This document shows, one piece after another, positions 1,262 through 54,272 of a stretch of DNA of 54,272 nt (position 1 is its first letter; every line of letters starts with the position of its first letter). A program made the translations under genes and the position numbers. The stretch is from positions 1-54,272 of the IMG/VR virus record IMGVR_UViG_3300035701_000040; one strand, written 5' to 3'. The DNA is from a virus (Duplodnaviria; Caudoviricetes). A model generated the notes under the pieces. That model searched no databases. It saw only the letters and a program-made list of their open reading frames with translations, and was not told the DNA's origin.

Positions 1262-3208
1262 ATGCTCACCAACGCCAGCGAACACTGCCTCTCCTGTCCT
1301 CAACGCGAGGTCGGTCAGAGCCGCATCTTGCCAGACGGACTCGTGAGCAGCGGGGTTGTGCTAGTCGGCGACTCACCTTACAAGGACGAGATTCGCTTAG
1401 GCAGGAACTTCAGTGGAGCGGCTGGCTACCTACTTGAGCGCCTGATTCGAGCTGTGAGCCGGGAGCGCAGTGAGTTCGGCGTAGCTAATACCATGTGGTG
1501 CTGCCCGCCGAGCTTAGGGTGGACAGACAAGTTTGCTGCTGCCCCAGCCCTAAGCAGTTGCAGAGCACACCTTGACGACTATCTCGCCTCCGTCCGCCCG
1601 CGCTGCATCGTGCCTATGGGTAATGTGGCCCTGCGCCGCATCTGCGACATTACAGGCATCGAGGCTCATCATGGCTACGTGCATGAGACTCCCTATGGGC
1701 TGGCGGTGCCGACCTTCCACCCCGCCTACTTGATTCGCGGCACAAGTGAAGTTGAGGGCCAGAAGTCTCGCAACCTGCGCTACTTCCCCGTGGTGGTGTT
1801 CGCGTTGCAGCGGGCGCTGGAGGTTGCGAGCGGGCGGTTCCAGAAACAGCCCGTCGAATACCTACTCGACCCAAGGCTGGAGGATGCCAAGGCTTATGTC
1901 GAACGCTGCCGTGAGCGCCAACTCGCTGACACCAGCGGAATCTACAGCTTTAGCTGTAGTAATGTAGTATCAAGTGAACACAGCTCGGGAGGTGCGCACG
2001 TTGCACCGACCCTCAAGACGGGCGAAGGAGCAGCCAGGGGTGACGGCGCTCATAGTGAGGGGGGGAACTCTGACGTAAGCATCCCCCCCTTTGTGGCTAG
2101 CCCTGGGGAGAGGCACCTGCTGGTGCCGACGGTCGCTGGGTTGTCGATGAGGATAGACCCGACAATGCCGACGGTCGGCAAGATTATAGGCATAAGCTCT
2201 CGGAGCAGCCAGAAGGCTGCGGCCCTGAGCGCAACAGCTTGTGGGCCAGATGCCGCAACCCGTGAGGGCGCGGGGGCTTCTACGTTTCTCAGCCTTTCCC
2301 CATCTGGCCCCAACCCCTCGGGCGGCGCGGCCCTCCAAGCGCCAGCCCTTGAGAGCGGCGGTGCGGGCGAGGGTAATCTCTGCCAAGGGCTACCTCCTGC
2401 CCGCATCCCGCTTCTATTCCTCGACCTTGAAACGCCGGAATCCTCAGCCTTCGAGGGCCAAGAAGAGGAGCCTCCGCAGTTCGCAGGCCGCAGGCTGAAG
2501 CTAGCTGGCCCCATTATCCGCTGTTCGTTCTCGCTATGGCCGGGGACGGCAGTGAGTTTTCCGTGGCAAGAGCCATTCATTAGTTGGGCGAAAGAGGTGA
2601 TTCAACGTGCTGATACGATTGCAGCCTGGAACGGCTATGACGCTGACTTTCCGAAATTGGGCGCAGAAGGAGTCTTGGGTGCAGGCATCAGAGGACGTTT
2701 ATCTACCGCCGGAGTACAACCTGTGCTGCTTGACCCGATGTGGGCCTGGCATTTCCTGCAAAGTGACCTACCCAAAGCCCTCGGCTTCGTCGCCCCGTTC
2801 TTCTACGACGGCCCGGCGTGGAAGCACCAAAGCGCGTCCGACCCTGCGTACTATAACGCAGTTGACTCAGACGCGGGGCTTAGAGCGCTTATCGGAACTA
2901 AGCAAGCGCTAGAGCGCCAAGGCCGTTGGGCGCGCTTCATGCGCCACTGCACCCAGACTCAGCCTATCTTTGAGCGCATGGGGTTCATTCAAGTTGACCG
3001 CGAGCAGCAGTCGGCGTTCCAAGCTCGACTGAAGCTGGAGTATGATGTTGCTCACGCTACACTGCAAACCAAGGCACCAGAGAGCATCAAGCCTGTGAAG
3101 GTCTGGAAGCGCCCGCCGAAGGATATGGCAGGGGTGCGAGCCGTCAAGGTGCCGACTGGGGAGCACCAAGGGCTGCTGGAACTGGAGGTGCCGGATGAGA
3201 ATACTTGA
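1262..3208 (+). CDS. DNA polymerase A, N-terminal part: family-4-like uracil-DNA glycosylase domain, long insert, 3'-5' exonuclease domain and start of the polymerase domain
   Basis: UDG: CLSC, VLVGDSPY, NFSGAAG, WCCPP, IVPMGNVA, TFHPAY. Exonuclease: ExoI FLDLET, ExoII AWNGYDADF, ExoIII YYNAVD. Confidence 0.85.
   Translation: MLTNASEHCLSCPQREVGQSRILPDGLVSSGVVLVGDSPYKDEIRLGRNFSGAAGYLLERLIRAVSRERSEFGVANTMWCCPPSLGWTDKFAAAPALSSCRAHLDDYLASVRPRCIVPMGNVALRRICDITGIEAHHGYVHETPYGLAVPTFHPAYLIRGTSEVEGQKSRNLRYFPVVVFALQRALEVASGRFQKQPVEYLLDPRLEDAKAYVERCRERQLADTSGIYSFSCSNVVSSEHSSGGAHVAPTLKTGEGAARGDGAHSEGGNSDVSIPPFVASPGERHLLVPTVAGLSMRIDPTMPTVGKIIGISSRSSQKAAALSATACGPDAATREGAGASTFLSLSPSGPNPSGGAALQAPALESGGAGEGNLCQGLPPARIPLLFLDLETPESSAFEGQEEEPPQFAGRRLKLAGPIIRCSFSLWPGTAVSFPWQEPFISWAKEVIQRADTIAAWNGYDADFPKLGAEGVLGAGIRGRLSTAGVQPVLLDPMWAWHFLQSDLPKALGFVAPFFYDGPAWKHQSASDPAYYNAVDSDAGLRALIGTKQALERQGRWARFMRHCTQTQPIFERMGFIQVDREQQSAFQARLKLEYDVAHATLQTKAPESIKPVKVWKRPPKDMAGVRAVKVPTGEHQGLLELEVPDENT
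1942..2406 (+). other. Hairpin-dense, low-complexity in-frame insert inside the polymerase gene (candidate structured RNA)
   Basis: Stems at 1942-1948/1953-1959, 2059-2066/2082-2089, 2112-2117/2122-2127, 2205-2210/2215-2220, 2243-2252/2301-2310, 2344-2351/2384-2391 and 2361-2368/2399-2406. The translation is G/S/A/P-rich. Confidence 0.5.
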
Positions 3209-3656
3209 TGTTTCCGCTGGCAAGAGGGCTGTCTGGTTCAACAAGCATCGTCCGATGGCTACCTACCTCGACATTCGTGCAGAGGTTGAGCCAGACATTG
3301 TGGCAGACAGCCGTAACATGCCACAATTTGTGGACTCGACCTATGACCTAGCTGTGTTTGACCCACCCCACGTTAACTTTAGTGCTAGCGCGGAGCTGTC
3401 ACGGACTTATGGGCACCATACTACAGCGGAGATTCGTGACATCATCTGCCCCACTGGTAAGGAGCTTAGTCGTGTTTTGCGCCCTGACGGGCTGCTAGCG
3501 CTAAAGTGGAATGACCACGACCAGAAGCTGAGCAGGATACTTGATTTGCTGCCCGACTTTGAGCCTCTATTCGGCCACAAGGTAGCTCAGCGCAATCTTA
3601 GAGTAAGCCAAACTTATTGGGTCATGCTCCGCAATCGGAAGTTCGATGCAAACTGA
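3195..3656 (+). CDS. Small SAM-dependent amino (N6-A/N4-C type) methyltransferase
   Basis: Motif I-like ILDVSAG, YLDIR, DIVAD; catalytic motif IV VFDPPH; GGAGGTG RBS at 3184. Confidence 0.85.
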   Translation: MRILDVSAGKRAVWFNKHRPMATYLDIRAEVEPDIVADSRNMPQFVDSTYDLAVFDPPHVNFSASAELSRTYGHHTTAEIRDIICPTGKELSRVLRPDGLLALKWNDHDQKLSRILDLLPDFEPLFGHKVAQRNLRVSQTYWVMLRNRKFDAN

Positions 3657-4830
3657 ACCCGTCTACATCACGCATTGGGAGAAGCTACTCGACTTCAACC
3701 CTCACTCTTGGCAGCAAGTCGGTGCGCTCATCAAGCACTGCGGCCTCGCCATGCCCCGCAAGCGTGGAGAGGACCGTGCAACCACTGAGGCCAAATACCT
3801 GCGCCGGTTCTCCAAGAAGCATGAGGTGTTCAAGTGGGTGCTCGAATGCCGTGAGCGCAAGAAGATGTTGAGCACCTATATGTGGCAGTTGGATGCCGAA
3901 GGGAAGGTGCATACAACCTATGGCTACCATCCGAGTACATGGCGCAAATCGAGCCGCAACGCCAACCTCCAAAATATTCCAGAGCGAAGTGACCTTGCAG
4001 GGAGCTTCCGGCGAATGCTCGTGGCAAGTCAAGGTCGAGTTCTCATCGAAGCCGACTCCAGTGCAATTGAGGCTGTGCTTGTCGGATATGGCGCGGGCTC
4101 TGAGCGATACATTCGCCTCGCCAAAGCGGGGATTCATGGATGGCTAGCCTCCTACTGGCTCGGTTGCCCCATCCCCCTCGACCTACCCGATGGAGAGCTG
4201 GCGCGGCGCTGCAAGGAGATGAAGAAGCTCAACCCGCCCGTCTACGAAGCCTGCAAGCGCGGTGGGATTCACGGCCCTAACTACCTGCTCACCTCACATG
4301 GCACCTATGACGAGTACGCTGAGCTGTTCCCCAAAGGGCTCAAGCAGGTCAAGGAGCTGCATGAGCTGTACTTCTCCCTGCCTCCCGGCCAAGACGTGAA
4401 GCGCTGGCAGCAAGCGACAATGGAACGTGCTCATGCTCAGCACTACCTCGACAACCACTTTGGCTATCGCCACTACTTCTACGACGTGTTCACTTGGGAC
4501 AGGAAGCGCGAGGGCTGGGGATTGGGCACCGACGCCAAGCGAGCTGTGGCCTTTGTGCCGCAGTCGGATGCGAGCGCCATTCAGACGGAAATCCTGCTCA
4601 AGCTCGCTGATACTGCTGTAGCTCCTTGGATGAGGTTGATTGTACATGACTCCCTCATCTTAGAGGCGCCAGAGGAGCAGGTGGACGTGGCTGTGGCACT
4701 CACTCAGCAGGTGTTCACAAGCTCGTGGCCGGAGCTGGGTGGGCTCAGCATCGGCTGCGAAGTGAGCATGGGCCGCAACCTAGCCCCCTTCGACGCGGCC
4801 ACGAACCCAGATGGAATGAGGAGCATATGA
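3646..4830 (+). CDS. DNA polymerase A, C-terminal polymerase domain
   Basis: FNPHSWQQV, TWRKSSRNANLQNIP, motif A LIEADSSAIE, motif B-like KRGGIHGPNY, motif C LIVHDSLILE. Confidence 0.93.
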   Translation: MQTEPVYITHWEKLLDFNPHSWQQVGALIKHCGLAMPRKRGEDRATTEAKYLRRFSKKHEVFKWVLECRERKKMLSTYMWQLDAEGKVHTTYGYHPSTWRKSSRNANLQNIPERSDLAGSFRRMLVASQGRVLIEADSSAIEAVLVGYGAGSERYIRLAKAGIHGWLASYWLGCPIPLDLPDGELARRCKEMKKLNPPVYEACKRGGIHGPNYLLTSHGTYDEYAELFPKGLKQVKELHELYFSLPPGQDVKRWQQATMERAHAQHYLDNHFGYRHYFYDVFTWDRKREGWGLGTDAKRAVAFVPQSDASAIQTEILLKLADTAVAPWMRLIVHDSLILEAPEEQVDVAVALTQQVFTSSWPELGGLSIGCEVSMGRNLAPFDAATNPDGMRSI

Positions 4831-5042
4831 GCCGAGTAGCTATCCGGGCGAGGCACATCCAACCCTTTATGAACTTTAACTATTGGATTGAGCTGGACGG
4901 AGAGTTCATCTCAAATGAGCTTGACTTGTCTGAAGCAGAGCGTAAGGCCCAGAAGATTGCATCTGCTCTAGGGGAGCAGAAATTTGACCGATTGGACTTC
5001 TGGAGTGCGCCTTTGGAAGTCAAGTGTAACTTGATTGAATGA
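4827..5042 (+). CDS. Hypothetical protein
   Basis: ATGA overlap with the polymerase stop; GAGGAG RBS. Confidence 0.55.
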   Translation: MSRVAIRARHIQPFMNFNYWIELDGEFISNELDLSEAERKAQKIASALGEQKFDRLDFWSAPLEVKCNLIE

Positions 5043-5052
5043 GAGGTGTGTG

Positions 5053-5256
5053 ATGGACTATGAGGAGCTGATGGGATGGTTGGAGAGCATCGACCCGGAG
5101 GTTGGCTTACTGTCGCTGTACGATACTTGGGACGGTGAGCGTGTAACAAAAGTGCAGTTAAAGGTTCGACAACTAGCACGTGAACTCAGACGTGAACACT
5201 ACCTATTCCCCAAGGAGGAACTATGTCACTCGTCGATGACATCAAGAAGTGGGTGA
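5053..5256 (+). CDS. Hypothetical protein
   Basis: GAGAGGTG RBS before ATG 5053. Confidence 0.5.
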   Translation: MDYEELMGWLESIDPEVGLLSLYDTWDGERVTKVQLKVRQLARELRREHYLFPKEELCHSSMTSRSG

Positions 5257-5543
5257 ACATCTTCAGTCCGGCAATCGCTGCCATCCCCGGTGTAGGGCCA
5301 GCGATGCCCTACGTCAGCATGGCCTTCGTCGCCATCGGTGAAGCTGAGCTGGCTCTCGGCCCCGGTAAAGGCCCGGAGAAACTCCAGCACGCCGTCAACG
5401 CTGCTGCGGACGCCATCAACATCTACAATGCAGCGATGGGAAAGAACTTCAACACCAGCGACATGATGGCTGCGCTAACCGATATGGTCAACGCTGGCGT
5501 GCGGTTCTGTAATGCGGTGGGGGCGTTCAAGAAGTCTAGTTAG
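5223..5543 (+). CDS. Hydrophobic helical protein, possibly holin-like
   Basis: AAGGAGG RBS; amphipathic N-terminus and GxGPEKL motif reminiscent of LL-H-type holins; stop overlaps the stop of the convergent lysin ORF. Confidence 0.45.
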   Translation: MSLVDDIKKWVNIFSPAIAAIPGVGPAMPYVSMAFVAIGEAELALGPGKGPEKLQHAVNAAADAINIYNAAMGKNFNTSDMMAALTDMVNAGVRFCNAVGAFKKSS

Positions 5544-5873
5544 GCGTCTACACCCTCAACCGGCTCCGGCGGGTTCTGGTAGTCCGCTACGACCTCAAGG
5601 AGCCTATGGCCCGATAGCCACACCCTCTCGCGGGTTGCTCGCGCCATGATGATGCAGCCGTGTGAGGCAGTGTCGGGCAGTTTTACGCTGTCGCCGTGCA
5701 TGAGGAAGCCGGAGCGTCCGAACATCTGGTTGGTGGGGGCGGGCTGTAGCTCCATTACAAATGGCCCGTGTGTAGGTGTGTCGTGTGGGGGGTGAATCGT
5801 GCCCTGCGTAGCCTGTGGCGGAGTGGAGCCCATTGTGGTAGAGTTTGCCTGTGCGCTGCTCACAGGTCCACAC
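5540..5873 (-). pseudogene. Tlde1/DUF2778-like L,D-transpeptidase-fold peptidoglycan enzyme (putative lysin) with an internal frameshift at about 5800
   Basis: N-terminus MWTCEQRTGKLY..TGYAG is in one frame; catalytic region GRSGFLMHGD..ASHGCII is in another. Confidence 0.65.
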
Positions 5874-5874
5874 G

Positions 5875-6174
5875 CTATACAGCCTTCCTCTCGTCAGCCC
5901 GCTCGTGACGACGGTCGATGGCGTCTAGGTGCTCCTTCATAGAATCCTGAATCGCCGTCAGTTGAATGGTAGCGCCCTCCACCAGCCGAATCCGCTCATC
6001 ATGCTGCCCAGAGATGACCTGCAACGACTCGATGCCCCGCTCAATCGCTTGGAGGAGGTAGTCGCGCTTCCCCTTCTGCCAAAGGTATACCGCGACCGCG
6101 ATGCAGAAGGCCATCGTCAGCACGTCACCAACGCTTACGTTGGCTTCCAGCCCCACAGCGAATGGAGGAGTCAT
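5875..6174 (-). CDS. Single-TM plus coiled-coil protein (holin/spanin-like candidate)
   Basis: GGAGG RBS; TM segment VLTMAFCIAVAVYLW followed by a coiled coil; lies next to the lysin. Confidence 0.55.
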   Translation of the reverse strand: MTPPFAVGLEANVSVGDVLTMAFCIAVAVYLWQKGKRDYLLQAIERGIESLQVISGQHDERIRLVEGATIQLTAIQDSMKEHLDAIDRRHERADERKAV

Positions 6175-6413
6175 GGGGTTGGACCTCCTCCAACGGGAGG
6201 CAGGGAGTTGCCGCCTCCTAGCAAACTGCGCACCGCTGGGATGCGGAAGGCGTTCCCCGCAACAAGCTGGCTGATGTCGTGTAGCCAGCCATAGAGAAAC
6301 GCATACCATGCCGCGCCCCCTGGCTGTGGAGACGGCAGCCTGCCTACCGCTGTTGAGAACAGGTAGAACAGTGACAGTGACAACAATCCGTGAGCGTTAA
6401 TCCAATCGAGCAT
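6171..6413 (-). CDS. Small membrane protein, holin candidate
   Basis: GGAGG RBS; two hydrophobic segments; lysis-region context. Confidence 0.55.
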   Translation of the reverse strand: MLDWINAHGLLSLSLFYLFSTAVGRLPSPQPGGAAWYAFLYGWLHDISQLVAGNAFRIPAVRSLLGGGNSLPPVGGGPTP

Positions 6414-6714
6414 GTTTAGTTTCCTCCTCCTCAGATTCCTCTTCCTCTTTCTCGTGTGAGAGCAGCGGGAACTCCTCGCCGTCTGCCGTCCAGAACTTGC
6501 ACACCCAGTCCGCTTTGATGTCCTTGTCGCCTTCTAGCCTCACAATCTCACAGGTTGATGCAGGCCGCACAAGGTTCTCGAAGAAGTGAATGCACCTCCG
6601 GCAACGCTCCGGGCCACTGGCTTCTTCGTAGTCCACTTCCTCCGGGCCGAACTTGGTTGGTCGGTCTGCGAGCAGGTCTTGGTAGTCAGCAAATGATGCG
6701 GTGTCTTCAGCCAT
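6397..6714 (-). CDS. HiPIP-like four-cysteine protein with acidic tail
   Basis: Y..ERCRRCIHF..TCEIV..I..DWVCKFW matches the HiPIP cysteine spacing. Confidence 0.6.
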   Translation of the reverse strand: MAEDTASFADYQDLLADRPTKFGPEEVDYEEASGPERCRRCIHFFENLVRPASTCEIVRLEGDKDIKADWVCKFWTADGEEFPLLSHEKEEEESEEEETKHARLD

Positions 6715-6716
6715 AG

Positions 6717-7010
6717 TTACTCGTTGACCGTGATTGAGAACCGGCCTTGTGTCTCCTTACACACGACATCGAATTGGTAGTCGTTAGCGCGTAGCGGCGC
6801 GCCGGAGATAGTACCGTCCGACTTGATTCCGAGCCCGCCTGGGAGCATATACTTAACGTCTCTTGGGGCTGGGGGCTTGTTGGAGACGCGGCAGCCAGTC
6901 AAGTTGTCCCCAACTTTAGCTGAATAAACTCTGCCGACGGCTCCATCGGGCAGCGGGATGACTGCCTTCGGGCTGTGTGCTAGTGCAATCGCTAGAATCA
7001 GTGTGGTCAT
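6717..7010 (-). CDS. Signal-peptide protein with a single putative Ig (He_PIG-like) domain
   Basis: Hydrophobic N-terminus; LPDGAVGRVYS..LPGGLGIKSDGTISGAP..FSITV. Confidence 0.65.
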   Translation of the reverse strand: MTTLILAIALAHSPKAVIPLPDGAVGRVYSAKVGDNLTGCRVSNKPPAPRDVKYMLPGGLGIKSDGTISGAPLRANDYQFDVVCKETQGRFSITVNE

Positions 7011-46770: not shown

Positions 46771-47019
46771 GTGAGACTGGGGGTGTATGTAGTTGAATCT
46801 GCTACGCATTATAGAGTCTCATGCCCTCTACGCACAGTGAGACTCCCCTTATTTTACAGTCTCACCGCCCCCACAGCGAGTGAGACTCTTATCTATCTGA
46901 TTCTTAGGGAGTTAGGCTACCAGTCTCACGGTTTCCCCCCTGTTATAGAGGGCGCTCAATGGAATCAGCAACTTATGGCGTTTAAGCTCTGCGCCTGCGC
47001 CGGTAGATTCCAGTCTCAC
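46771..47019. repeat. Cluster of seven GTGAGACT/AGTCTCAC boxes; putative replication origin (iterons)
   Basis: Copies at 46771, 46815 (1 mismatch), 46837, 46858, 46880, 46922 and 47012; IHF-like AATCAGCAACTTA at 46963. Confidence 0.65.
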
Positions 47020-47854
47020 GACGCTCTAATTCGCCCGATTCGATAGCGTCGGTGAACCATCGGAACAAGGAGGCGCGGGAGATTGACTTCTCGGATGCGA
47101 AGTCGCGGAAGGTTTCGATGAAGATGTCTTGGTCGAACACGAGCGACTTTAGGAAGTTGTAGAGTAGGAAGTAGCTGGTTTCGTTGGTGGTCTCAACGAA
47201 GCAGCCCTTGTCGTCGATGCGGAAGTCGAAGCGTTCCTCGCGGGCGTTGCGGGGGAGCAGGTGCATGATGCGGCGGTTGTCGTACACGTCTTGGGGCTTG
47301 ACGCGCTCGATGAGGATGACGGTTTCTGTGTAAGCTGCCCACGCTGCGGAGCCCGAAACCCGCTGGCGCAGGTCGAGGTAGCCTTCATTCTCCTTGGTCT
47401 TGGGAGTGTGAGCACTGCCAATGAGGGTGAGCTTCTCGCGCTCCACGGTGAGCGCTACGCCTAGCAGGAACTTGGAGGTCATAGCGTAGAGCTTACCGCC
47501 CTCACTAGCTGGAGCCATCGACTGAAAGCCTTCCACGAAAAGGACTTCCACGCCAGGGATGTGAGTGCGGGCGAGGGCAATGATGTCAACTATCGGGTGT
47601 CCTCTACCGTCGATGGTGGGCATGGTAGCGGGGTCGATGTCCAAGCGAGCTAGCGTAGCCTCAATGCTAGCACGGCCACGGTCACAGCTCACGTAGGCGT
47701 ATGGCTTGGGGTGCGTAGAATAACCCAGTACGCGCTTGCCTTCGCGCCAATCGCAAATCATACGCAGCAGCCATGTGGTTTTTCCCACACCGCTAGCGCC
47801 TGCGACCAAGTGAATTTGCTCACTTGGGAATATCTGGTCGATAACGAATGGCAT
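46982..47854 (-). CDS. RepA/AAA_25-like helicase with C-terminal winged-helix
   Basis: LVAGASGVGKTT Walker A, YVSCDR, VLFVEG, AHTPK, SGSAAW, PRNA; C-terminal ISRASLFRW..GIYR; GGAG RBS before ATG 47854. Confidence 0.85.
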   Translation of the reverse strand: MPFVIDQIFPSEQIHLVAGASGVGKTTWLLRMICDWREGKRVLGYSTHPKPYAYVSCDRGRASIEATLARLDIDPATMPTIDGRGHPIVDIIALARTHIPGVEVLFVEGFQSMAPASEGGKLYAMTSKFLLGVALTVEREKLTLIGSAHTPKTKENEGYLDLRQRVSGSAAWAAYTETVILIERVKPQDVYDNRRIMHLLPRNAREERFDFRIDDKGCFVETTNETSYFLLYNFLKSLVFDQDIFIETFRDFASEKSISRASLFRWFTDAIESGELERRETGIYRRRRRA

Positions 47855-47957
47855 ATAGACTCCACTCGACGGAGATGAGGAGGCTGATGGTCGAGTCACC
47901 AACCTCCTCGAAGACTGCCCGGCGGGGGCAGTGAACCGGAGGTGCCCGGTTTTTGGA

Positions 47958-48049
47958 AAGGTAGCACGGGCGGCATCAAAAGTCAAGCGCAAAATTCTTG
48001 GGGGCACGTAACGATTTAGCTTGACACGAACACGAATCGGGTGTATGGT
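47958..48049. promoter_or_regulatory. Divergent sigma70-like promoters
   Basis: Minus strand: TTGACT (47986-47981)-17-TACCTT. Plus strand: TTGACA (48021-48026)-17-TATGGT. Confidence 0.55.
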
Positions 48050-48076
48050 CGTAACGAATTGGAGAGCGCCGTCGAG

Positions 48077-48274
48077 ATGGCAAACCACAAGTTGCTGAAA
48101 CCAAACAAGTTCTGTCGGCTATGCGGGAAGCGGCTGCGCGGCCAGCGCCGGAAGTTCTGCTGCAATCGGCATGGGACGCTGGCGAGGGTGCGTAAGTGGC
48201 GTGGCCTCAAGAGGGTCGAGTCCGGCTACGCGAAGGTAATGGTCGGTCAGGAGCGTGTATGTCCAACGTCATAG
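48077..48274 (+). CDS. Small basic zinc-finger protein
   Basis: CRLCG..RKFCCNRH..RVRKWR. Confidence 0.55.
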   Translation: MANHKLLKPNKFCRLCGKRLRGQRRKFCCNRHGTLARVRKWRGLKRVESGYAKVMVGQERVCPTS

Positions 48275-53901: not shown

Positions 53902-54272
53902 GCGAAGAAACTATTAAGCAAGCATGGCGAGATAGCCATTTTGCGGACGACTATCCAATCGGTAAGCGGTTCGAGGAATTCAAATCTGGCTACGCCTGTG
54001 CTGCTTGTGTCTTGGTCCACTGCACCGCCATCGCCCACGGGCGGGAGTTAAACCCCAAGTGCGGGCATCTGATGGCGAATGTTGTAAGAAGGGCGCATAA
54101 GCACACGGAACATTGCCCCGGAGATTGTGAAGTCTACATTGAAGGCTGTCTTACCTGCGAAGCCGTTGCCAAGGTGGTCGATGAGAGGTTGATGGAGTGC
54201 GGGCATCGACGGCTGGACTGGATTGTCTGTGATGGTTGCGGTGGAGATGGTCGTGAATGCACAAAGTGCCAC
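53898..54272 (+). CDS. Cys/His-rich protein spanning the contig junction (continues at 128-271)
   Basis: Open frame from ATG 53898 (MSEETIKQAW) through the terminal overlap into the 29-271 ORF. Confidence 0.7.
   Translation, partial: MSEETIKQAWRDSHFADDYPIGKRFEEFKSGYACAACVLVHCTAIAHGRELNPKCGHLMANVVRRAHKHTEHCPGDCEVYIEGCLTCEAVAKVVDERLMECGHRRLDWIVCDGCGGDGRECTKCH
54146..54272. repeat. Terminal overlap copy 2 (identical to 1-127)
   Basis: Exact match to the window start. Confidence 0.95.

Follow-up and report, generated by a model that had tools for sequence, protein, structure and literature searches.

A UDG-exonuclease-PolA gene in two pieces with a methyltransferase gene in the break in a metagenome-assembled virus

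Organisation of the locus

The locus described here is a family A DNA polymerase (PolA) gene that lies in two pieces, with a methyltransferase gene in the break, in a virus of the Caudoviricetes (IMG/VR record IMGVR_UViG_3300035701_000040). The window, i.e. the whole stretch of DNA that was analysed, is the complete record of 54,272 bp, which was assembled from a metagenome. Three open reading frames (ORFs), each in a different frame, follow one another on the + strand: (i) ORF1 (1262..3208; 648 amino acids, aa) is the N-terminal polymerase piece, with a UDG-like domain, a 3'-5' exonuclease and the polymerase helices up to thumb helix H, (ii) ORF2 (3195..3656; 153 aa) is the cargo gene inside the break, a methyltransferase with a DPPH motif, and (iii) ORF3 (3646..4830; 394 aa) is the C-terminal polymerase piece, running from just before the FNPxSxxQ motif to the C-terminus. 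ORF1 and ORF2 overlap by 14 nucleotides (nt) (3195-3208), and ORF2 and ORF3 by 11 nt (3646-3656). The TGA stop codon of ORF1 (3206-3208) is formed from the Leu4 and Asp5 codons of ORF2, and the ATG of ORF3 (3646) sits within the final codons of ORF2. The ORF1 tail (3134..3205, + strand), past the conserved KVWKRPPKDM block, is the remnant of a hypervariable linker at the tip of the thumb. Two Shine-Dalgarno sites were read from the + strand: a strong GGAGGTG (3184..3190), 4 nt ahead of the ORF2 ATG and within the last codons of ORF1, and a weak GGAAG (3637..3641), 4 nt ahead of the ORF3 ATG. The latter is the first standard start of ORF3, the frame of which is closed upstream by a TAA at 3604. 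The initial annotation, made from the letters and an ORF list, had described a two-piece PolA gene with a methyltransferase gene in the break, at these coordinates and with these overlaps, and had seen in the weak ribosome-binding site and the in-frame TAA of the second part something other than a simple frameshift. The ORF positions, the family matches and a re-reading of the sequence bear it out on all these counts. No terminator-like site was found between 900 and 5600, and the three ORFs are most likely expressed as one operon. Judging from the overlapping stop and start codons, translation of ORF3 is probably coupled to termination of ORF2.

Both junctions are bridged with 0 differences in Logan contigs from four sediment metagenome runs (X1, X3, X4 and X5). 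Indeed, a single 2171-nt contig of X3 covers 2700-4038, and contigs of X4 and X5 bridge each junction; X1 may be the source run, and the other three derive from separate samples and studies. That a misassembly or chimera put the methyltransferase gene within the polymerase gene is a natural concern for a metagenome-assembled record, but the independent contigs of X3, X4 and X5, in which neither alternative joints nor loose ends were found, make its probability negligible. The DNA support across the junctions, which had been singled out for checking, is thus independent of the record, and the stretch is not an assembly artefact.

ORF1 matches the Pfam UDG family (1.3e-17, aa 29-163) and NCBIfam UDG_fam4 (3e-17, under the curated cut-off), and in an 11-sequence alignment its cysteines C80 and C100 never vary, while C9 and C12 are nearly invariant. 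A family-4 UDG-like domain therefore appears to share the chain with the exonuclease, whose DEDDy residues we read in D388, E390, D462, Y531 and D535, all invariant in 11 sequences. ORF3 matches Pfam DNA_pol_A (4.1e-29), with a match that begins at profile position 29. Its residues D137, E142, K204, N212, Y213, H334 and D335, invariant in 8 sequences, are read here as polymerase motifs A, B and C, which is a reading and not the result of a tool. The family profile aligns with Klenow at E 2.9e-41. By its polymerase domain motifs and its 3'-5' exonuclease domain, the split gene is predicted to encode a family A DNA polymerase. Cultured phages hold distant relatives: 222 of their records match ORF3, all with less than 60% identity (23-29% for the 30 listed), and tblastn with ORF1 found four records, in the UDG part only. 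A scan of viral contigs with ORF3 alone returned four distant loci only.

Inactivating changes in the halves had been named beforehand as a possible refutation of a working polymerase; both halves retain every invariant family residue. The gene could nevertheless be seen as a decaying pseudogene that was disrupted by the methyltransferase gene, in a phage that uses another polymerase, and two features would suit such decay, namely the weak ribosome-binding site of ORF3 and an odd low-complexity insertion in ORF1 that is absent from the relatives. This in-frame insertion (1910..2395, + strand; about 160 aa, aa 217-378) lies between the UDG and exonuclease domains, is stop-free and rich in Gly, Ala, Ser and Pro, and has no counterpart in the fused relative L021 (882 aa), in any homologue or in any related locus. 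Its guanine-cytosine (GC) content by codon position is 0.64/0.635/0.63 versus 0.64/0.47/0.71 in the flanks, and its RNA folds well under the shuffled controls (z-score -3.86). Rfam gave no match for the insertion and the protein atlas no usable hit; the repeats around it are short two-copy matches only, probably due to chance, and with blastn neither the insertion nor the methyltransferase region matched the remainder of the window over more than 17 nt. In an AlphaFold2 (AF2) model of L021 (mean predicted local distance difference test, pLDDT, 89.1), the insertion site is disordered (pLDDT <50, residues 234-251). The insertion may be an expanded disordered linker or the remnant of an inserted element. 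Decay of the gene as a whole is very improbable, since ORF1 and ORF3 are full-length and stop-free with all invariant residues present, the flanking segments have normal codon-position GC, the same split is kept across relatives that are 45-59% identical, the sequence is identical in four runs, and none of 19 other ORFs selected from those of the window matches a stand-alone polymerase in PHROGs. One of the 19, on the minus strand (46982-48085), has a weak 'DNA polymerase/primase' PHROG match (4.1e-05) beside a better primase/helicase match.

Position and recurrence of the break

In unsplit homologues of 820-950 aa (P0002, P0003, P0005, P0008, P0009, P0011 and P0012), ORF1 aligns to residues ~8-455 and ORF3 to residues ~465-940, with 42-51% identity (48-51% for ORF3). 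The only part of these proteins left uncovered is the linker between the blocks KxWKRPPKD and PFNPxSxxQ, the length of which varies from ~8 to ~190 aa among them; P0004 (446 aa) and P0006 (453 aa) end at the same place as ORF1. This alignment to uninterrupted homologues, a check proposed in the initial annotation, maps the break to the linker just before FNPxSxxQ. On Klenow, the family profile falls into two stretches, chain residues 17-238 (ORF1) and 246-602 (ORF3), the gap between which is the break. We take the thumb helices to be named (H, H1, I) as in the Klenow literature, so that ORF1 ends with H and ORF3 begins just before H1. In T7 gp5, the FNPSS sequence is at residue 334, and the thioredoxin-binding insertion of T7 polymerase is placed on the thumb tip, before helix H1, in the available text of Czernecki et al. 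2023 (PMC10201439). Because of the Klenow alignment gap, the T7 FNPSS and the site of the T7 insertion, the cut is assigned to the thumb tip. In the L021 model, the blocks covering the break (441-470) have pLDDT values of 60-76 versus ~90 in the neighbouring helices, and in the polymerase part only block 561-570 scores below them (pLDDT 51). By comparison of sequences, the chain is cut in a hypervariable thumb-tip linker, and nothing conserved is lost.

Viral, metagenome and genome contigs were scanned with the family alignment, which yielded 118 loci, 101 of them distinct. Both sides of the linker are visible in 87 of the 101; the polymerase is continuous in 76 and split in 11. Eight of the 87 are split at the same linker (L006, L010, L014, L019, L024, L036, L122 and L198), and three are split ~70-85 residues further in (L030, L033 and L189). 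In a stricter end-to-end pass over the 101 loci, 71 had the polymerase in one ORF (five of them with large in-frame inserts), 17 were broken and 13 indeterminate; the broken ones include L032 and L039, split near ORF3 residue 130, and L133, L149, L161 and L178, which are unclear and could be errors. ORF3 was also searched exhaustively against 1.84 billion cluster representatives (50% clusters), and the best 150 were classed by their phmmer coordinates. Among these, 89 are fused, with homology to the end of ORF1 upstream, and 13 are Met-initiated C-halves that start no more than 35 aa before the ORF3 start; P0134, the closest relative with 59% identity, is one of the 13. In 38 others the match begins after ORF3 residue 25: some are Met-start proteins whose beginnings, near residues 73-84 and 121-135, coincide with the two other sites of breakage, and this class also takes in fused proteins with divergent heads. 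The remainder consists of nine proteins with 84-165 aa upstream that lack homology to the end of ORF1 and of one without a Met start. On a tree of the N-half (74 rows), the split state needs at least five changes. Because the cut recurs across relatives, separate chains are taken to be a stable state of the enzyme and not a lesion.

The contents of the gap vary from relative to relative. It is empty in L010 and L019, where the halves overlap by 74 nt and 8 nt respectively, and it holds one to three small ORFs in L006, L024, L036, L122 and L198. In L014, the halves are in the same frame with a single TAG (at 2748) in the linker and a start codon 18 nt later, which may reflect a genuine split, readthrough of the stop codon or an error in sequencing. 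Two families of small gap proteins (~68-71 aa) are conserved, both encoded directly upstream of the C-terminal piece: one is found in L024 (6756-6962; 68 aa) and L122 (2539-2748; 69 aa), with 42% identity, and the other, which is Cys-rich, in L036 (6620-6832) and L198 (1040-1255). Both families may have an accessory role in the split enzyme. An EndoVII-type endonuclease gene (7.7e-20) lies in the break of L033 (4201-4665). Three loci scored as indeterminate carry an HNH gene ahead of the C-half (L123, 312-545; Pfam 2.9e-6), an ORF of 81 aa ahead of the C-half (L144), and an ORF of 73 aa in a gap between the exonuclease and polymerase domains (L165). In L030, ~3.5 kb (3401-6960) separate the polymerase pieces and hold ORFs of 539, 105, 405, 81 and 61 aa, the three largest of which gave no Pfam or PHROG match. 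Furthermore, P0007 and P0135 contain HNH-bearing inteins (HNH, Hint and intein-splicing Pfam hits), and among L022, L037, L147, L148, L168, L024 and P0134 several have in-frame inserts of 180-300 aa at ORF3 residues ~85-100 or ~215 that are not recognised by Pfam. As a family, these polymerase genes are a hot spot for mobile elements. The statement that breaks in phage polymerase genes usually hold introns, inteins or homing endonucleases, made when the locus was first annotated, holds within this family for its endonuclease and intein part (L033, L123, P0007 and P0135). As the breaks of relatives hold endonucleases or inteins, a methyltransferase is an odd cargo.

The frequency of introns and inteins in phage polymerase genes, and the inteins of P0007 and P0135 in particular, lend some plausibility to a rejoining of the halves, through splicing of 3209-3645 as an intron with an ORF, through ribosomal bypass or through ligation by a split intein. 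A bypass would have to span 440 nt, a distance about nine times that bypassed in T4 gene 60. In the window, no Rfam family reaches its gathering score, and on 1700-3900 Rfam at E up to 5 gives one unrelated sRNA only (E 2.9); the three overlapping ORFs fill the space and leave no non-coding flanks. Pfam finds no Hint or intein domain in ORF1 or ORF3, and past the conserved blocks the ORF1 tail (~24 aa) and the ORF3 head (~15 aa) are too short for split-intein halves. Because such halves are lacking, protein trans-splicing is not expected. Finally, relatives with abutting, frame-shifted halves and relatives with Met-initiated C-halves indicate that separate chains are the norm, and directly abutting halves need no rejoining element. 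Rejoining in any of the three forms is therefore extremely unlikely.

The methyltransferase gene and its surroundings

ORF2 matches PHROG 954, 'DNA methyltransferase' (1.3e-30), and is an intact representative of a large family of free-standing proteins of ~150 aa. Its 317 homologues are 84-268 aa long (among the 120 listed, lengths are 140-225 aa and identities 54-72%), and no Pfam domain is precomputed for any of them. Conserved motifs of the family are ILDxSAG and VFDPPHVN, with F55, D56, P57, P58 and H59 invariant in 22 sequences. The AF2 model of ORF2 (pLDDT 84.9) has 376 Foldseek matches in the PDB at E <=0.001, at the top of which are Trm11, TrmN, TrmM and N6AMT1. From this modelled fold and from DPPH as motif IV, ORF2 is predicted to be a class I amino-methyltransferase of the (D/N)PP(Y/F/H) type, dependent on S-adenosylmethionine. 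Its 153 aa include no separate target-recognition domain. Among cultured phages, homologues with 37-40% identity across 88-99% of the length of ORF2 bear the label methyltransferase or DNA methyltransferase, for example in Listeria phages A118, A006 and LP-101 and in Lactobacillus phage phig1e (Rorf161); for A118 and A006, an overlap of the match with the gene of a DnaD-like helicase loader was also seen. It is PHROG 954 and the GenBank labels that suggest DNA as the substrate. The GC content of ORF2 is 0.519 versus 0.571 for the genome, within the lowest 3.8% of segments of the same size, and this fits horizontal acquisition.

None of 80 viral loci with the ORF2 family has this polymerase within 5 kb. 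Conversely, one of the 101 distinct polymerase loci, L136, has a methyltransferase nearby, and a methyltransferase within the break is present in the window only. In L136, a metagenome contig of 1896 nt, a methyltransferase gene (1400-1867) whose product is 64% identical to ORF2 stands directly after an unsplit polymerase gene, with an ATGA overlap. The two methyltransferases belong to the same subgroup of 13 of 121 rows (support 83) and are not placed as sisters.

These counts bear on the proposal of a functional partnership, in which the methyltransferase is a third subunit of the split polymerase or is recruited by its thumb-tip termini, and methylates nascent DNA at the fork. The tight packing of the operon, with overlaps on both sides, would agree with such a partnership, as would the L136 arrangement and the new termini, which are expected to lie at the thumb tip next to the duplex exit. 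It is unlikely all the same, given the 80 viral methyltransferase loci without the polymerase nearby, the single case of L136 among the polymerase loci, the unrelated small ORFs or empty gaps at the same place in other relatives, and the widespread stand-alone occurrence of the family in temperate phages without this polymerase. Replication-coupled methylation, or a physical link between methyltransferase and polymerase, is speculation. Quite improbable too is a plug-in arrangement, in which the free thumb-tip ends, beside the emerging duplex, would dock the product of the gene in the break, and the methyltransferase, made in coupled amounts, would methylate the daughter DNA. If this were true, the replicase would be modular and the thumb-tip cut used rather than tolerated. 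Most likely, the methyltransferase is a passenger.

The antisense ORFs beneath the three genes (2909-3244, 3685-4137, 2050-2580 and 1970-2386), which like five small neighbouring ORFs gave no PHROG match, were treated as shadow frames of GC-rich DNA. The window carries an exact direct terminal repeat of 127 nt (1-127 and 54146-54272); the replication module therefore spans the ends of the record, with + strand genes from ~41.9 kb through the end to ~5.5 kb. By weak PHROG matches, this module includes an exonuclease, a Sak4-like annealing protein and a primase/helicase. The minus strand carries the structural genes and the gene for the large terminase subunit.

Interpretation and comparison with known systems

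With a probability that we put at about 0.72, the locus encodes a gene-fission PolA that is made as two polypeptides, with the break turned into an intergenic slot and the methyltransferase gene as its cargo. The gene for a UDG-exonuclease-PolA would have undergone fission at the thumb tip, in the poorly ordered linker between helix H and FNPxSxxQ/H1, giving one chain with the UDG, the exonuclease and helix H (ORF1) and another that runs from H1 through helix I and comprises the palm and fingers (ORF3). The two would reassemble non-covalently, presumably through the packing of the single-chain enzyme, and neither RNA nor protein would be rejoined. The cut would be, in this lineage, an ordinary space between genes, in which small genes are gained and exchanged; the slot would here hold an orphan DPPH methyltransferase of 153 aa, from a family common in early and replication modules of phages, that was probably acquired horizontally and probably methylates the phage DNA against host restriction. 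Its own strong ribosome-binding site would serve the methyltransferase, and ORF3 would probably depend on coupling. Of this picture, the anatomy of the locus, the place and the recurrence of the cut, the integrity of both halves and the fold of the methyltransferase are shown by the data; the reassembly of the chains, the coupling, DNA as the substrate of the methyltransferase and a role against restriction are inferred. The interpretation given in the initial annotation thus stands in part: the gene is in two pieces, this is not a simple frameshift, and, since relatives repeatedly show the same cut with both halves intact, a polymerase of two subunits is the interpretation to prefer; its other suggestion, rejoining by splicing or ribosomal bypass, is abandoned.

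Several observations weigh against the two-polypeptide interpretation. The stretch was found in no RNA run. Some of the metagenome loci counted as split could be sequencing frameshifts. The ATG of ORF3 is preceded by the weak GGAAG only. As regards ORF2, its sequence matches in Pfam, NCBIfam and the PDB are all below threshold (E 0.013, 0.043 and 0.29), and the closest folds of solved structure belong to enzymes for tRNA, rRNA or proteins and not for DNA. Moreover, the trees of the two halves differ on whether the split predates the methyltransferase. With the N-half, constraining the window, L006, L024 and L122 to one clade gives a slightly better fit than an unconstrained tree (log-likelihood, lnL, +4.85; p-AU 0.61), whereas with the C-half this constraint costs 20.45 lnL, although it is not rejected (p-AU 0.154). 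The smallest well-supported C-half group that includes the window (12 rows, SH-aLRT 98) holds five fused rows (L007, L009, L011, L020 and L127), beside five linker-split rows including the window, L123, which is probably split, and L136.

The thumb-tip cut has arisen or been kept many times in the UDG-PolA lineage, and this suggests that the two stem helices of the thumb can come from different chains. It would offer a natural permissive site for engineering PolAs that are split or that bear inserts. It would also illustrate how the place of a gene fission can become a site at which phages lodge small genes.

Split replicative polymerases have precedents in phages. In the available text of Czernecki et al. 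2023 (PMC10201439), the PolA of S-SBP1-like T7-like cyanophages is described as split into two adjacent fission genes whose stop and start codons overlap, its two chains are proposed to reassemble with their new termini exposed to solvent, and the split is called the first of its kind among PolAs; split polymerases in a T7-like cyanophage lineage also appear in the accessible part of a 2019 preprint. The window shares with them a family A replicative polymerase in two adjacent genes with overlapping stops and starts. In S-SBP1-like phages, however, the cut lies between the exonuclease and polymerase domains and the gap is empty, whereas in the window it lies inside the polymerase domain, ORF1 retaining the first helices of that domain (Klenow chain ~200-238), the enzyme has a UDG domain, and a gene occupies the cut. 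The UDG-PolA fusions listed in the same text (the N4-like cluster 17 and unclassified UDG-PolAs) are single-chain. They have in common with the window the N-terminal family-4 UDG-like domain, the exonuclease and PolA, and the unsplit relatives measure ~800-900 aa, whereas the window's polymerase is split.

Other systems resemble the locus in having genes between the pieces. The gp43 of T4-like phages is split, with intervening genes between pieces that keep their original order and orientation (Dassa et al. 2009, PMC2677866, in the part available). As in the window, a phage replicative polymerase is in two genes with genes between; gp43 belongs to another polymerase family, and none of the genes between its pieces is a methyltransferase. 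In Aeromonas phage Aeh1, nrdA is split by the homing endonuclease gene mobE and the pieces form an active enzyme, according to the portion seen of Crona et al. (PMC3045599). Both loci have an essential enzyme gene split by a free-standing gene; in Aeh1 the enzyme is a ribonucleotide reductase and the insert an endonuclease, whereas ORF2 is a methyltransferase, which sets the window apart from 'genes-in-pieces' made by homing endonucleases. In 'fractured genes', as outlined in the accessible text of Dassa et al. 2009 (PMC2677866), split inteins flank a homing endonuclease gene. There, as in the window, the pieces stay in order at a single locus around a free-standing gene. The window lacks both split-intein halves and an endonuclease, and it shares with the model in that text the way in which the 5' end of the inserted gene provides the upstream stop and its 3' end the downstream start.

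The cargo and the site also have counterparts. The small orphan methyltransferases of PHROG 954, those of A118, A006, LP-101 and phig1e (Rorf161) included, are likewise of ~150 aa and belong to early or replication modules, and none of them lies inside another gene. T7 gp5, as described in the available part of the literature, has the same thumb-tip site, which can accommodate large insertions; there an in-frame loop binds a processivity factor, whereas in the window the chain is cut. In the literature searched, which was covered in part and without supplements, no paper was found on a thumb-tip split of a UDG-PolA or on a methyltransferase in such a break, and within that coverage the methyltransferase is the first occupant of such a break that we could find that is neither an endonuclease nor an intein. 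In summary, the locus is set apart from these known systems by its lineage (UDG-PolA), by the site of the cut (the thumb tip, inside the polymerase domain) and by the cargo (a methyltransferase).

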